A DNA stretch of 32,000 bases, from assembly GCA_963662645.2 (NCBI GenBank), contig OY759762.1:1802004-1834003 (forward strand). Reading direction: 5' to 3'. The notes beneath the pieces are model-generated. The model made no database searches. It worked only from the letters and a program-made list of their open reading frames with translations, and was not told the origin of the DNA. A program made the position numbers and the translations under genes. Origin of the DNA: Acidimicrobiales bacterium (lineage in GTDB: Bacteria; Actinomycetota; Acidimicrobiia; Acidimicrobiales; Aldehydirespiratoraceae). Of this stretch, positions 463 through 8,934 are shown piece after piece. Each line of letters starts with the position of its first letter. Positions within the stretch are counted from its first letter, which is position 1.

Positions 463-466
463 GAGG

Positions 467-530
467 CCGCAGGCTATCGGCCGTTCACGCCCGCAGGCTA
501 TCGGCCGTTCATATTCGCAGGCTTCGGCCG
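467..530. repeat. 24-bp-period tandem repeat, 2 perfect copies plus 1 degenerate copy
   Basis: ccgcaggctatcggccgttca occurs at 467-487 and again, identical, at 491-511. A degenerate third copy, cgcaggcttcggccg, lies at 516-530. The array fills the 46-nt gap between the asd start (462) and the stop of the upstream membrane-protein gene (509-511) and extends into that gene's last codons. Confidence 0.9.
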
Positions 531-1117
531 GCGCGTTTGATGATGCCCATGAGAAGTCTCAACACAAACTCCAAGACCGCGAGGAAGAAGAGATAGTACA
601 GGATGTCTTCGGTGTAGTCCTTGGCATTCTGCAAGGACTCCAACGACTCCTCTACCGAGAAGAAAGAGATATCAATAATGACTGCGGCTAGAACGGCAAA
701 CGGCAATATTTTAGCCACGTCTTGAGACAATTCTTCTTTGTAGTACGCTGTCACACGAATGGCACCGACGGTGGCGAACGCTATCGATAGTGTTTCCGAA
801 AAATCTTGGCCCCTGGACAGAAAGGCCAGTATCAGCGTCAGGACCGCGAACCAGAAGAAGGCCGCGAGTGGAAACAGCACAAGGTACTTGAGCACATAGA
901 AGGCCATGTGGAGCGCGGACCGCAGCCATCGGAGGTTCACTTCTTCGTATCTGGAGAAGTCTACGGAGAACATGTCGCGGGCAGCCAAAAACCGATAGAA
1001 CTTGAAAACAAAGATGGCGTAAGCGGCCATCAACAGAACATAAGTGGAGGCGGGGCGCAACAAGTCCATGGCGTCATTGAAGTTCAGACCCTTGCTGAAG
1101 ATGTCATTGATGTCCAT
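509..1117 (-). CDS. hypothetical integral membrane protein (about 4-5 hydrophobic helices), compositionally foreign
   Basis: 202-aa ORF with AGGAAG 6-7 nt upstream of the ATG (reverse complement of 1118-1135: gtgaaaggaagaactc-ATG). Hydrophobic stretches include [52 protein letters not shown] and [16 protein letters not shown]+C is far below the surroundings (I counted 49/100 in 541-640). No family recognised. Confidence 0.6.
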
Positions 1118-5589: not shown

Positions 5590-6296
5590 AGATCGCCGCG
5601 ACCACCCGGCGCGGCCAGCGGCGCGCCGAGAACCAGGACCGGATAGTGGTCGATAGCACCGTCCTGGGCAGCGACGTCGGCGGGACGACCGAGTTCGACA
5701 CCGGACCGCTCACCCTGTTGGCGGTGATCGACGGCATGGGGGGGCATCCGGCCGGCGGCGTGGCGGCCGCGGCCGCGGCCGATGTGATGGCGTCGGGGTT
5801 CCGCCGGCTGCGGACTCGCGAGGACGTAGGAAGGCTCGTCGAGGACGCCAACGACGAACTGTACGCCCTGATGGACCGGGTGTCCGGGCTGAGCGGTATG
5901 GGCGCGGCCGTAGCGGGGATCTTCACCGCTTCCGACGGACTCGTGATCTTCAACGTGGGCGATGCTCGGGTCTATCTGCACTCCAGCGGCTACCTGATGC
6001 AGGCGAGCATCGACGACCGCCGCCCCGGCGACGACACCGGCCCTGTGACCCAGTCGCTGGGAGGCCTGCGGGCCCATTCGCCGGTCCAGGTCCACCTGAG
6101 CAGCGAGCCCTATGACGGCGGCACAGCACTGGTGGCCAGCGACGGACTGTTTTCCCAGGTGTCCCATGAGCGCCTCGCCGAAGCCATGGCCGCCCCACCG
6201 GCTCGCGCCGCGAGCCGGTTGCTGGACACCGCCCTCGCGGCAGGCAGCCAGGACGACATCTCCCTGGGCTTGCTGCAGCTTCCGTCCCATGGCTGA
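5586..6296 (+). CDS. PP2C-family Ser/Thr protein phosphatase
   Basis: RRGQRRAENQDR, AVIDGMGGHPAGGVAA, NVGDARVYL, LVASDGLF, SQDDISLGLL. The start is taken as GTG 5586 overlapping the FHA gene stop (GTGA); track ORF 5517..6296 is in the same frame. Confidence 0.9.
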   Translation: MKIAATTRRGQRRAENQDRIVVDSTVLGSDVGGTTEFDTGPLTLLAVIDGMGGHPAGGVAAAAAADVMASGFRRLRTREDVGRLVEDANDELYALMDRVSGLSGMGAAVAGIFTASDGLVIFNVGDARVYLHSSGYLMQASIDDRRPGDDTGPVTQSLGGLRAHSPVQVHLSSEPYDGGTALVASDGLFSQVSHERLAEAMAAPPARAASRLLDTALAAGSQDDISLGLLQLPSHG

Positions 6297-8922
6297 CACG
6301 ACCCGACGCGACGATGACTTCCCGCCGAGCGCGCCGACACTGCGCGAGGCACAAGTCCCGTCCAGCGCGCCGACACTGCGCGAGTCCCCTTCGTCGCTCG
6401 AGTCGATGCGGGTTCACACCGGACCCGCCCAGCTGCCCAGCGAACTCACCGACAGCTATCGCCTGGTGCGCCAACTCGCCTCGGGCGGCGCGGAGGCGGC
6501 GCTGTTCGAGGTCGCCGAGACCGGTACCGGCGAGATCCGCGTCTTGAAGATCTACCACCAGCACGTGGCACTGCGAGGCGAGGCGCTGCTGCGCATTCGA
6601 TCGATCGACCCGGCCCATGTAGTGCATCTCGTCGACCACGGCCAGCTCGAGGACGGTCGATGGTACGAAGTGCAGGAACGGATCGAAGCCGGCAACCTCG
6701 TCGACTACCGATCGGGCGCGAGTCCCACGGAGAGCGACCTGGAGGAGGTCGTCGCAGAGTTGGGGGCTGCCATCGCGGCGTTCCACGGAGCCGGGCTCGC
6801 CCACCACGACATCAAGCCCGAGAACATCCTCGTCAGGAACATCTCGCCCCTCGACCTCGTGCTGGGCGACTTCGGGCTGTCGGTCGTGTCCGACAACCGC
6901 ACCTACTACGCGACCAACCGGCACGCCACCATCGCGTATCAGGCGCCTGAGACCATGCGACAGGTTGGAGGCGGCGCACGCGACTACTGGGCCGTCGGGC
7001 TCACCATCGCCATGCTCGCCACCGGCGAGACCCCGTACGCGGGCCTAAACGAACACGCCATCCTCGATCAGCACTACTACCGGATGCCGCCGGCCATCGT
7101 CGAGTCGATGCCGGAGGGCCGCCTCAAGCAGCTGTGTCGGGGACTGACCCGCTACGACCCCAAGACCCGCTGGTCCGAGCAGGAGGTCCGGAGTTGGCTG
7201 AGGGGCCACACTCCGGCCGTCGCGCCGGACGAGCCTCAACTTCCGGCCGACTCGACACGGGTCGTCCACTTCAACAACAAGCGGTTCACTGTTCCGGCCG
7301 CGCTGACCCGCGAGATATTGGAGTGCTGGTCGCTCGCGGCCGAGACCATCGGCGTGAGGGCCCGGCGAGAGCAGTTCATGGACGAGCTGATCCTGGCGTT
7401 CGGCACCGAGCCCCTCGCCATGCTGACCAGGCGGTGGAGCGCCGAACCGCCGCGCCGCGACCGCGTGGACGCCGCCATCGTCGAGCTGCTGCTGACGCTC
7501 GACCCCGAAGCTCCCGCCATCTACCGCTCCCGGCCCCTCGACGCGGCCACCATCGCCGCGGCGGCGCTCGGCGACTCCGAGGAGGACGCCCGCTTCGTTC
7601 GGGACCTCGGTGACCGCGGCCTGCTGTCGGCATGGTCCCACAGCGCCGACTACACGGAACTGGGCGACATCGACCAACGCTGGCAGGACGAGCTGAGTCG
7701 GGCCACCGAGATCATCTCCGAAGTCCGGGCCGCCGGGGCGGCCGCCCCTCCCATCGAGGTCTGGACCGCGCCCCTGCTGGCGGTGAGCGCTCGCGACGAA
7801 CTGATCGACGAATGGCAGCTGCAGCGCGCCCCGCGCCCCTTCGGTGACCTCATGCCCGGCTGGTACGAGCAGATCGCGGACGGATCGAGGCCGGCGGAGG
7901 TGATCGGCTCGGTGCTGCTCTTCACCGAGGCCCAGCGGGTTCAGCGCAACGCGGTAGAAGCACGGCACCGACAACAGCGGGAAGCCGAACGGTCGCGTCG
8001 CGACCGGAAGTACCGGGCACTCCTGTCACTCGCCGGCTGGACGGCGGCCGTGGCGTTCCTGGTCAGCTGGGTGCTGGCGCCAGGAGCGGGGCTCATCGTG
8101 TACGCGATCGCCTTCGCGCTCTTCCGCCAGTGGCGCAACGCCGTAGCCGACCGCCACAGAGTCCAAGAGTCGAGGGGGGAGACACCCGCAACCGAGGCGC
8201 ACGAGGTCGCCTTGTCGCTCTTCCGCCGCTGGTACCGCGCCAGGTCAGATCGCCGACGGGCCCGGCGGTCGAGGAGGGGGATCGTGTCTGCGGCGACCTC
8301 CGCCCTCGTCCGCCAGTCGCGCAATGCCAGGGATCGCCGCCGGGCCCGAGGTTCAGGGGGCGAGGTGCCCGCAACCGCGGCGCGTCCGGGCAGGGACGAG
8401 CTGTCCGCCAGCCGCAGAGCGGAGGCCTACGGGGTCCTGGCCTTCGGGCTTGTGGTGGCATGGGCGATAACCACGGACATCTGGCCACCGCTGGTGCGAC
8501 TGATCGCGAGCGACTCGCTCGACCTGGTAACCGTACGCCAGGACGGCTACAAGCTCGCCGGATTGGCGTCCCTAGCCTGGTCGCTGCTGTCGTTCCGGCA
8601 CCGCCGCAACGAGGGTCCTCCGACGGACGACCAGATCCAGCGACTGCGGGCCGCGGACCGCCGCACCTTGAGGAGGACCCTGCTGCTGACGTTGGTGTGG
8701 GGATTCGTCCGGTTCGCGAGCCTGTCCTTCTCGTGGTCGCGAGGCGCGGTCGCGACGCTGATGCTCAGCGTGTGGGTACCGGTCTCGCTCGGCGGCATGA
8801 GCCTGCTGGTGCGGGGGCGCTGGTCGCATCGCCGGGCCGGCACCAGATGGGCAGTGGTGCTGCTGGCCGCAGGCGCGGCTCTGTTCGCAACCGGACTGCT
8901 GCTGGAGTTCTTGCCGATCTAG
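6289..8922 (+). CDS. Hanks-type Ser/Thr protein kinase with a helical middle region and a multi-TM, Arg-rich-repeat C-terminal region
   Basis: Same frame as track ORF 6112..8922. Start taken as ATG 6289, which overlaps the PP2C stop by 8 nt (ATGGCTGA). Kinase motifs: IRVLKIY (catalytic Lys), HHDIKPENILV, DFGLS, AYQAPE, DYWAVGLTIAMLATGETPY. About 6-7 hydrophobic segments lie from roughly 8020 to the stop. Confidence 0.9.
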   Translation: MADTTRRDDDFPPSAPTLREAQVPSSAPTLRESPSSLESMRVHTGPAQLPSELTDSYRLVRQLASGGAEAALFEVAETGTGEIRVLKIYHQHVALRGEALLRIRSIDPAHVVHLVDHGQLEDGRWYEVQERIEAGNLVDYRSGASPTESDLEEVVAELGAAIAAFHGAGLAHHDIKPENILVRNISPLDLVLGDFGLSVVSDNRTYYATNRHATIAYQAPETMRQVGGGARDYWAVGLTIAMLATGETPYAGLNEHAILDQHYYRMPPAIVESMPEGRLKQLCRGLTRYDPKTRWSEQEVRSWLRGHTPAVAPDEPQLPADSTRVVHFNNKRFTVPAALTREILECWSLAAETIGVRARREQFMDELILAFGTEPLAMLTRRWSAEPPRRDRVDAAIVELLLTLDPEAPAIYRSRPLDAATIAAAALGDSEEDARFVRDLGDRGLLSAWSHSADYTELGDIDQRWQDELSRATEIISEVRAAGAAAPPIEVWTAPLLAVSARDELIDEWQLQRAPRPFGDLMPGWYEQIADGSRPAEVIGSVLLFTEAQRVQRNAVEARHRQQREAERSRRDRKYRALLSLAGWTAAVAFLVSWVLAPGAGLIVYAIAFALFRQWRNAVADRHRVQESRGETPATEAHEVALSLFRRWYRARSDRRRARRSRRGIVSAATSALVRQSRNARDRRRARGSGGEVPATAARPGRDELSASRRAEAYGVLAFGLVVAWAITTDIWPPLVRLIASDSLDLVTVRQDGYKLAGLASLAWSLLSFRHRRNEGPPTDDQIQRLRAADRRTLRRTLLLTLVWGFVRFASLSFSWSRGAVATLMLSVWVPVSLGGMSLLVRGRWSHRRAGTRWAVVLLAAGAALFATGLLLEFLPI
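6328..6384 (+). repeat. perfect 21-bp direct repeat (36-bp period) encoding a duplicated SAPTLRE motif at the kinase N-terminus
   Basis: agcgcgccgacactgcgcgag at 6328-6348 and 6364-6384, identical. Confidence 0.95.
8116..8375 (+). repeat. three degenerate repeats of about 90-100 bp encoding Arg-rich segments in the kinase tail
   Basis: Protein level: ALFRQWRNAVADRHRVQESRGETPATEA / SLFRRWYRARSDRRRARRSRRG / ALVRQSRNARDRRRARGSGGEVPATAA. DNA units start near 8116, 8215 and 8302 (gcgctcttccgccagtgg / tcgctcttccgccgctgg / gccctcgtccgccagtcg). Confidence 0.8.
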
Positions 8923-8934
8923 CGTCCGTGAGCG

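Follow-up and report, generated by a model that had tools for sequence, protein, structure and literature searches.

A seven-gene cassette inserted between ask and asd in an Acidimicrobiales lineage

Results

Organization of the ask-asd locus

In Corynebacterium glutamicum and Mycobacterium, ask and asd (lysC-asd) form a classical operon. Analysis of a 32,000-nucleotide (nt) stretch of Acidimicrobiales DNA (contig OY759762.1, hereafter the window) revealed the same two genes, on the same strand and in the same order, but separated by 8,472 nt (8.47 kb) and seven open reading frames rather than by a short spacer: a convergent six-gene operon and one co-directional gene, which together form the cassette described here. 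The window is high-GC DNA (~70%) from an uncultured Acidimicrobiales-type actinobacterium, and its Ask protein shares 76-65% identity with proteins of Acidimicrobiales metagenome-assembled genomes (MAGs) among the GTDB species representatives and 88-93% identity with many proteins labelled 'Acidimicrobiaceae bacterium' or unnamed in a larger protein collection. The ask gene (8935-10173, minus strand) encodes an aspartate kinase with two ACT domains (Pfam AA_kinase and ACT; NCBIfam NF005155, 510 bits with a cutoff of 346), and asd (1-462, minus strand), cut at the window edge, is represented by the first 154 codons of an aspartate-semialdehyde dehydrogenase (Pfam Semialdhyde_dh, 7e-32; NCBIfam NF011456, 231.8 bits with a cutoff of 223). 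A later asd start, suggested by tblastn matches beginning at residue 16, proved to be an artefact of low-complexity masking; the unmasked match begins at residue 1.

Read from asd, the cassette consists of p202 and, divergent from it, p402 followed by genes for an AAA+ ATPase, a radical S-adenosylmethionine (SAM) enzyme, an FHA protein, a PP2C phosphatase and a Ser/Thr kinase. The six plus-strand genes overlap start-to-stop (2544/2547, 4466/4469, 5116/5128, 5586/5589 and 6289/6296). An initial annotation of this DNA had given the order and strand of ask and asd, the seven genes separating them and the distances at the two junctions, and these coordinates are exact: the kinase stop TAG (8920-8922) and the ask stop codon (8935-8937) are 12 nt apart, and the p202 stop (509-511) is followed by a gap of 46 nt to the asd ATG (462-460). 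Its remark that no terminator hairpin is visible at the ask and kinase stops was likewise borne out. A consensus scan found no terminator-like site at either cassette junction, folding of the ask/kinase junction was no better than that of shuffled sequences (z 0.0 and 0.5), and folding of the p202/asd junction was weakly below shuffles (z −1.8), without a T run. The low-GC membrane gene that it placed upstream of asd corresponds to p202 (GC 0.509), and the low-GC patch is genuine, with a GC content of 0.52 over 501-1250 compared with about 0.70 elsewhere. As also reported, no integrase or other recombinase was found among the seven cassette proteins (463-8934; Pfam, PADLOC and NCBIfam), no tRNA gene between ask and asd, and no long flanking direct repeat or repeat common to both cassette ends; positions 1-13000 of the window contained no Rfam families.

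The DNA between ask and asd is an insertion

We examined 80 Ask loci from GTDB species representatives, of which 71, mostly from Acidimicrobiia, were informative. In 45 of these, asd lies no more than 300 nt downstream of ask, while the gap is 0.8-2.5 kb in 16 and larger in two, and asd is inverted in one and unlinked in seven. The gap genes that were sampled are ordinary ones, encoding a methyltransferase, a CNNM transporter and TPR and HD-domain proteins, and none of the seven cassette genes was found in these loci. The initial annotation had called ask and asd normally contiguous, which holds as the majority state, in about 63% of related loci, whereas the other 37% have intervening genes or unlinked genes.

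Closer relatives, collected through the p402 protein and through Ask, provided an empty site. Locus L091, whose Ask is 92% identical to that of the window, has the order dut, orf133, ask, a 68-nt spacer, asd and EamA. Positions 1-481 and 8928-10690 of the window match L091 by blastn on either side of ~40 nt, indicating that window 482-8927 (8,446 nt) replaces that stretch. Spacers between ask and asd in relatives range from 18 to 190 nt. Together with the adjacency of the two genes in most informative loci and the presence of the cassette in unrelated contexts elsewhere, the empty site demonstrates that 482-8927 is a real insertion relative to the ancestral state, as had been proposed. In L089 (Ask 93%; 9400-11250), the cassette is also missing but the block of ask and orf133 is inverted, leaving asd behind orf133 and ask facing dut. 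The L089 inversion is an independent disruption of the ask-asd linkage.

The cassette occupies several positions around asd

The insertion is neither recent nor private to the window genome: L082 (Ask 96%) and L087 (Ask 93%) share the arrangement and align collinearly with the window from asd across the cassette to ask. In sister genomes the cassette instead lies directly after asd, either co-directional and without p202 (L084, L085 and L090; Ask 92-93%) or convergent and with a p202 homologue (L083; Ask 84%). Around 70 Ask clusters at 88-93% identity were found compared with only 40 p402 homologues among 5.8 billion clusters, so most close relatives must lack the cassette.

Protein trees resolved two lineages of the cassette, at odds with the Ask tree. 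L084 and L090 have hosts near that of the window (Ask 92-93%) but carry the most divergent cassettes (p402 48-50%, AAA+ 75%), whereas L083 has a more distant host (Ask 84%) and a cassette of the window's lineage (p402 69%, AAA+ 85%). Several gains or replacements of the cassette around asd are the simplest reading of this pattern, and the asd flanks are a recurrent landing or rearrangement site in the clade. Restriction-modification, Fic and toxin-antitoxin genes also vary around the locus within the clade. In L087 (14990-18760), the kinase gene is split into three open reading frames, and ask, which tblastn detects at 93% identity, was not called; frameshift errors of long-read sequencing are a more probable cause than pseudogenes.

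The seven genes travel as one unit

The initial annotation had described seven unrelated genes. Instead, they constitute one conserved, translationally coupled cassette, and the whole set is found again, with protein identities of 70-93%, in unrelated surroundings in L081, L086 and L088. The copy in L081 is surrounded by transposases, TacA, an acetyltransferase and Fic, and that in L086 by ParE, PemK and a TnpB-like gene; three tandem IS1380 copies lie directly upstream of the cassette in L088. Nucleotide homology between the window and L081 and L086 begins at 501/516, at the p202 stop, and extends to 8907, 13 nt before the kinase stop codon. Both L081 and L086 have kept 14 nt that perfectly match the ask 3' end, CCAGCGTCTACTGA, in convergent orientation as in the window and 32 nt beyond the stop of the kinase gene; zero chance matches are expected, and the sequence is the ask 3'-end allele of L084, L089 and L090. 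L081 additionally has the asd-leader-like sequence ACGACCGACCGG after the p202 stop. These remnants indicate that the copies in L081 and L086 derive from a window-type locus, and hence that the window arrangement is old enough to have been a donor. The window cassette is itself a mosaic, being nearest to L081 and L086 from p202 to FHA (89-91% nucleotide identity) and nearest to L082 in the kinase part (92%).

Presence or absence among close relatives (L091) and occurrence in other contexts (L081, L086 and L088) give the cassette some of the properties of a genomic island. It resembles defence and other genomic islands at core-gene hotspots in this presence/absence polymorphism, in the varying contents and orientations at one locus, in its restriction-modification, Fic and toxin-antitoxin neighbours, and in having copies beside insertion sequences (IS) and toxin-antitoxin genes. 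Unlike typical islands, it has no integrase, tRNA, att repeats or target-site duplication, and only a single compositionally atypical gene, p202; the sole junction repeat is tandem and confined to one end. The low GC of p202 does not indicate recent foreign origin here, since p202 has a GC content of 0.51-0.57 in all six loci that carry it and its composition is therefore a property of the gene. Nor is an IS1380 composite transposon or mobilizing agent indicated, since the window has a single IS1380 copy upstream of ask that is absent from L082 and L087, which have the cassette in the same position.

Anatomy of the junctions

At the ask end, the 12 nt between the convergent stops (8923-8934) are a remnant of the ancestral ask-asd spacer, with window CGCTCACGGACG corresponding to the start of the L091 spacer, CCTGCTCACCGGCCG. 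The junction between p202 and asd (463-535, minus strand) contains three tandem copies of an asd-leader unit, at 467-490, 491-514 and, in degenerate form, ~515-535. The first two make up a 24-nt tandem repeat with 21 identical nt, for which 0 matches are expected by chance, and a second TAGCCT lies at 500..495. The degenerate copy encodes the last 8 codons of p202 (KRAGRSLRI-stop). Consistent with this, p202 and its L083 homologue can be aligned to about codon 194 (...LRLLxGI) and diverge afterwards. In L081 and L086, p202 ends in ...GAAGCCTGCGGGCGTGA, which has the 9-mer AGCCTGCGG in common with the asd leader GATAGCCTGCGGCCTCATG; the same 9-mer is thus found in both the p202 end and the asd box. 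Given two AGCCTGCGG 9-mers 24 nt apart, a single slippage reproduces the structure of the window junction, and these alignments would make the 24-nt repeat a secondary duplication, formed where illegitimate recombination had created a junction. We rejected a target-site duplication or att scar as its source, because both copies are at one end and slippage accounts for the unit. The initial annotation had overlooked this repeat, as well as the IS1380 element upstream of ask and the identical TAGCCT box at ask and asd described below.

Tandem repeats also occur at this locus in relatives. In L083 (17740-17850), a 41-nt tandem duplication spans the asd stop codon region at the asd/kinase junction, making it a second tandem duplication at a cassette junction. 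Separately, the ask-asd spacers of L083 (18900-19080) and L084 (8640-8830), where the cassette does not separate the two genes, contain two tandem copies of a ~72-nt unit with an inverted repeat (AATTGGCAGC...GCTGCCAGTT); this unit, which is lost in the window arrangement, could be a small repeat element or a regulatory hairpin.

ask and asd have predicted promoters of their own

With a convergent cassette operon in between, co-transcription of asd with ask from the ask promoter is implausible. The initial annotation had concluded that asd now depends on a promoter within the inserted DNA, in the intergenic region 1118-1338. We consider this unlikely, since asd is preceded, whatever lies upstream, by a conserved TANNNT hexamer, TAGCCT (471-476, minus strand), 8 nt before its ATG and following CGA, without a Shine-Dalgarno sequence. 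A TANNNT hexamer close to a start codon that lacks a Shine-Dalgarno sequence is the sequence pattern of a leaderless promoter. Mycobacteria have abundant leaderless mRNAs, and 73% of their primary transcription start sites (TSSs) have TANNNT 7-12 bp upstream, often after CGN (PMC3898074); the distance from TAnnnT to the TSS is 3-11 nt in C. glutamicum (PMC3890552). The initial annotation had itself named a mapped asd promoter within 463-508 as evidence that would count against it; the box at 471-476 comes close to this, as a predicted rather than a mapped promoter.

Conservation of the motif supports this prediction. All arrangements found in the clade have conserved the ~25 nt that precede the asd ATG, and 40 of 60 related loci have TANNNT 6-8 nt ahead of the asd start, compared with 1.1% of all ATGs in the same DNA. 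The box is kept with spacers of 18-190 nt, whether behind ask, orf133, p202 or a methyltransferase gene. More distant loci without the box show a GGAGG-type Shine-Dalgarno sequence with stop-start coupling. A predicted -10 box with the same hexamer precedes ask (10182-10187, minus strand), where GGTAGCCT is followed by 8 nt and then GTG, and is conserved in L089 and L091; ask and asd share a (G/A)TAGCCTG box at a distance of exactly 8 nt from the start codon. The identical boxes suggest a shared type of leaderless promoter and possibly co-regulation without co-transcription. We infer from the sequence that asd, like ask, is transcribed from a promoter of its own into a leaderless or nearly leaderless mRNA, and that asd is most likely still expressed from its predicted promoter at 471-476. 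Promoters of this kind would explain the free separation, inversion and interruption of the pair in this class, and suggest that in this lineage, where in contrast to the classical operon both genes are preceded by a TANNNT box at a position suited to a leaderless transcript, ask and asd probably never formed an obligate operon.

Read-through from p202 into asd is nonetheless possible because no terminator lies between them; the gap is 46 nt in the window, 55 nt in L082 and 5 nt in L087. The divergent intergenic region between p202 and p402 (1118-1338) contains a conserved CTGGCCGTA and a perfect 12-bp palindrome, TAGTATATACTA (1228-1239), in an alignment of four ask/asd-linked loci, with 1-3 changes of the palindrome in L082, L083 and L087. 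Judged by its sequence, the palindrome is a possible operator or -10 region.

Genes of the cassette

The product of p202 (509-1117, minus strand) is a membrane protein with 4-5 transmembrane (TM) helices predicted from hydropathy and had no match in Pfam, NCBIfam, PADLOC or PHROG. Its homologues, 73-88% identical, adjoin p402 in L081, L082, L083, L086 and L087. The signature protein of the cassette is p402 (1339-2547, plus strand), predicted to be a coiled coil with a small C-terminal alpha/beta domain (AlphaFold2, mean confidence pLDDT 84.7). It had no fold match in the PDB at E<=0.001 and no Pfam, NCBIfam, PADLOC or PHROG family, and its distant members likewise belong to no Pfam or PADLOC family. 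Besides the 40 close homologues, representative clusters numbered 608 at E<=1e-3 and 300 at 1e-10, and tblastn searches of plasmids with p402 and with a distant relative gave no matches. The most conserved stretch of p402 is a V-R-x-x-G loop (IVRASG, residues 325-330; window 2311-2328), followed ~15-25 residues later by a near-invariant [FW]-C (C345).

The AAA+ ATPase (2544-4469, plus strand) resembles the second (D2) tier of ClpB (Pfam AAA_2, 5e-47, and ClpB_D2-small; Walker A GPTGVGKT, Walker B LLLFDE). Only this tier, which is of the active type, matches (residues ~320-628), and the N-terminal region lacks a Walker A motif; with FVLSGNVHDRY in its place, the N-terminal ~330 residues look like a degenerate first (D1) tier. 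Scores below the equivalog cutoffs for ClpB (259 vs 1232) and ClpV (202 vs 885) place the protein outside the two-tier disaggregases. A search with the N-terminal domain returned seven matches and missed known close relatives, and therefore says little about its distribution. The radical SAM enzyme (4466-5128, plus strand) has the CxxxCxxC motif (C29, C33 and C36) and is NrdG-like (Pfam Fer4_12, 3e-19; PHROG anaerobic ribonucleotide reductase small subunit, 3e-21), scoring 69.7 bits with NCBIfam NrdG TIGR02491, below the cutoff of 126.1. It has the cysteine motif of an NrdG activase, but no glycyl-radical partner, NrdD or PFL, was found in the cassette.

The remaining genes encode an FHA protein with an N-terminal zinc ribbon (5116-5589, plus strand; Pfam FHA, 1e-12, with weak zinc-ribbon matches), a PP2C Ser/Thr phosphatase (5586-6296, plus strand; Pfam PP2C_2; NCBIfam Stp1, 3.5e-26, below cutoff) and a Ser/Thr protein kinase with a C-terminal multi-TM region by hydropathy (6289-8922, plus strand; Pfam Pkinase, 6e-24), whose HHD, DFG and APE catalytic motifs are intact. 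The starts of these three genes were refined from the list of open reading frames by start codons and by the gene calls of L082. L081 (13604-16762) and L086 (5156-8329) have lost the PP2C gene by deletion, and an in-frame fusion there joins FHA and the kinase into proteins of 1052-1057 residues, which implies that the phosphatase is dispensable for the cassette. The kinase gene has an internal 52-nt repeat (8149-8200/8332-8383, 71% identity) encoding Arg-rich loops between predicted TM helices.

Comparison of the cassette with known systems

Full-length homologues of the AAA+ protein (~40% identity, including the N-terminal region) are paired with a radical SAM gene on plasmids of other phyla. 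In Rhizobium, this pair adjoins a 2086-residue kinase-helicase that matches PADLOC PDC-S37 (9e-139) and also Hhe and MkoA. On conjugative plasmids of Moellerella, its companions are a PIN-domain protein and a large AAA protein, with ArdA and an integrase alongside; in Aristaeella (Clostridia) they are a Ser/Thr kinase, FHA, PP2C and a p402 homologue that matches weakly (E 2e-6, obtained in a small search space). Patchy distribution, toxin-antitoxin and IS surroundings, variable restriction-modification and Fic genes, and fast divergence relative to the flanks suggest by analogy that the cassette is most likely an uncharacterized conflict or anti-phage-type system under a Ser/Thr phospho-switch.

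The cassette did not have all components of any of the PADLOC v2 systems compared (Dodola, PDC-M37, PD-T4-6 and Mokosh), and p202, p402, the radical SAM enzyme and the FHA protein had no PADLOC match. The AAA+ core matches PDC-M37B (2e-26) and DolB of Dodola (1e-14), but the match is limited to residues ~357-488, the cassette has no counterpart of DolA or PDC-M37A, and Dodola and PDC-M37 lack radical SAM, p402 and kinase/phosphatase/FHA genes. The cassette kinase domain matches PD-T4-6, MAD6 (mad6) of MADS and MkoA of Mokosh, all three through a generic kinase fold; the window kinase differs from these proteins, and from PDC-S37 and Hhe, in having a multi-TM C terminus and no helicase or nuclease domain. 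Among activases of the NrdG and PflA type, the small CxxxCxxC radical SAM enzyme is nearest to NrdG. Radical SAM enzymes are known in phage defence, as in the prokaryotic viperins (pVips) and OpnA of Ophion, but the partners of the cassette enzyme differ from those of pVip and of Ophion (PHP and PRTase). The combination of kinase, PP2C, FHA and a ClpB/ClpV-like ATPase recalls the threonine-phosphorylation pathway of type VI secretion systems (PpkA/PppA/Fha1 with ClpV). This is a resemblance only, and a regulatory module of that kind was rejected, since type VI structural genes are absent; the ClpV score is 202 vs 885 and the host is actinobacterial. The searchable literature yielded no description of a system with these genes; the conflict-systems paper (eLife 2020) and the Ophion preprint (bioRxiv 10.1101/2025.09.30.679545) describe systems that differ from the cassette.

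Other features upstream of ask

An IS1380-family insertion specific to the window lies outside the cassette (10691-12452, minus strand), ~0.6 kb upstream of ask and between orf134 and dut. Its transposase (10999-12321; NCBIfam transpos_IS1380, 279.6 bits with a cutoff of 180) is accompanied by 25-nt inverted repeats (10803-10827 and 12428-12452), and the element is not present in any of the seven related loci L082, L083, L084, L087, L089, L090 and L091. Farther upstream, a 36-nt direct repeat with 94% identity and 72-nt spacing (12890-12925/12962-12997) lies near the dut/RNase T region. The blastn alignments to L091 and L089 stop exactly at this repeat, indicating a tandem duplication specific to the window.

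Discussion

The insertion between ask and asd, its boundaries, its distribution among relatives and the conservation of the motif before asd were observed directly, and we take them together to reflect a mobile cassette, probably a conflict system, that entered the ask-asd spacer while asd kept a predicted promoter of its own. We assign this explanation as a whole a probability of about 0.7; to the observations it adds putative promoter activity, a putative mechanism of insertion and a proposed cassette function. In this model, a discrete, horizontally mobile seven-gene cassette (482-8927) would have entered the short ask-asd spacer by illegitimate, recombinase-independent recombination in an ancestor common to the window genome and at least two related Acidimicrobiales genomes. 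The insertion would have fused the p202 3' end to sequence derived from the asd leader, and later slippage between the two copies of the 9-mer, 24 nt apart, would have yielded the tandem repeat. The split would have been tolerated if ask and asd, each with its own TANNNT box, are not obligatorily co-transcribed, with asd transcribed from its box at 471-476 and read-through from p202 possibly adding to its expression. The cassette itself may have a core of the AAA+ protein, the radical SAM enzyme and p402 under a phospho-switch of kinase, phosphatase and FHA protein, with p202 as a possible membrane effector.

Several points weigh against this explanation. The nominal binomial P of 1e-63 for TANNNT at asd is inflated by the relatedness of the 60 loci, a spacing of 8 nt between hexamer and ATG is near the upper limit of what is usual, and the asd -10 box is a conserved motif that constitutes a predicted promoter; asd beyond position 1 falls outside the window. 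At the cassette itself, the signs of an insertion mechanism (target-site duplication, inverted repeat or recombinase) are absent, and the cassette phylogeny consists of neighbour-joining trees of single proteins from MAG and long-read assemblies, some of them frameshifted (the kinase and ask of L087). The case for a defence role is one of guilt by association: no whole system in PADLOC matches the cassette, p402 has no relatives in IMG/VR, and triads of FHA, PP2C and Ser/Thr kinase are also ordinary signalling modules and common regulators in Actinobacteria.

The last of these points bears on a different reading of the cassette, as a housekeeping signalling or stress module in which Ser/Thr phosphorylation controls an AAA+ remodeller, perhaps functionally coupled to ask and asd. 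Such a module would fit the GC content of the cassette, which apart from p202 matches the host, and its recurrence beside ask-asd in several genomes. We regard it as doubtful, because the cassette is patchy and missing from many close relatives, resides in islands rich in toxin-antitoxin and IS genes, diverges fast compared with its flanks, and has cross-phylum plasmid homologues linked to a PDC-S37/Hhe/MkoA-like helicase-kinase, a PIN protein and ArdA. As to expression, asd could have been cut off from the ask promoter and now belong mainly to a p202-asd bicistron transcribed from 1118-1338. The two genes are co-directional and closely spaced in the window, L082 and L087, with no terminator between them, and the intergenic region has the conserved palindrome and an AT-rich stretch. 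However, asd would be poorly translated within a bicistron given its lack of a Shine-Dalgarno sequence, and TAGCCT stands at a fixed distance from its ATG in all arrangements and is identical to the box of ask, making this arrangement improbable.

Other alternatives concern how the cassette came to lie where it does. It might have been located beside asd in the ancestor of the clade, as in L083, and have crossed to the other side of asd through excision and reinsertion or a succession of inversions. Every cassette-bearing member of the clade indeed has the cassette within the ask-asd-EamA interval, the L083 and window cassettes are of the same lineage, and the inversion of ask and orf133 in L089 shows that the region rearranges. 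We nonetheless judge local relocation unlikely. L091 and L089 belong to the clade but have no cassette, and only 40 p402 homologues stand against many Ask clusters at 88-93% identity. Cassette and host trees also disagree, the end of p202 in L083 is a different one, and intermediate arrangements were not seen. The opposite polarity, in which separated ask and asd are ancestral in the lineage and adjacency in relatives results from cassette loss, draws on the three genomes in the separated state and on the ask remnants in L081 and L086, which imply a state old enough for a donor. It is very improbable, given that adjacency is the majority condition among the 71 related loci, mostly Acidimicrobiia, and in the outgroup L083, and that a p202 3' end built from asd-leader sequence is the signature of insertion into a pre-existing spacer.

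Beyond insertion of a mobile cassette, a bolder proposal, which we advance only tentatively, is that the cassette represents an undescribed cross-phylum immune or conflict system with a core of the p402 coiled coil, an AAA+ protein with a dead first tier and an NrdG-type activase, and that the asd flanks are its preferred landing site in one clade. At its boldest, the activase would place a radical on p402, the phospho-switch would arm the system and p202 would act as effector. More speculatively still, the V-R-x-x-G loop and the [FW]-C of p402 loosely resemble a glycyl-radical signature and its thiyl cysteine.

In sum, the split of the ask-asd pair appears to be an ordinary type of event, an island between core genes, and probably has no regulatory effect, since asd seems to possess a leaderless promoter of its own. 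The locus provides a natural series of an empty site, three filled arrangements and an inversion, indicating that the ask-asd pair is modular in Acidimicrobiia and that the flanks of one essential gene can be occupied repeatedly by a cassette without a recombinase. Comparison among relatives also provides evidence for leaderless TANNNT promoters in an uncultured class of actinobacteria. Finally, the analysis delimits a set of AAA+, radical SAM and coiled-coil genes with kinase-based regulation that is found again, next to defence-type proteins, on proteobacterial and clostridial plasmids, and the absence of this set from current defence catalogues makes it a concrete candidate for a new system.

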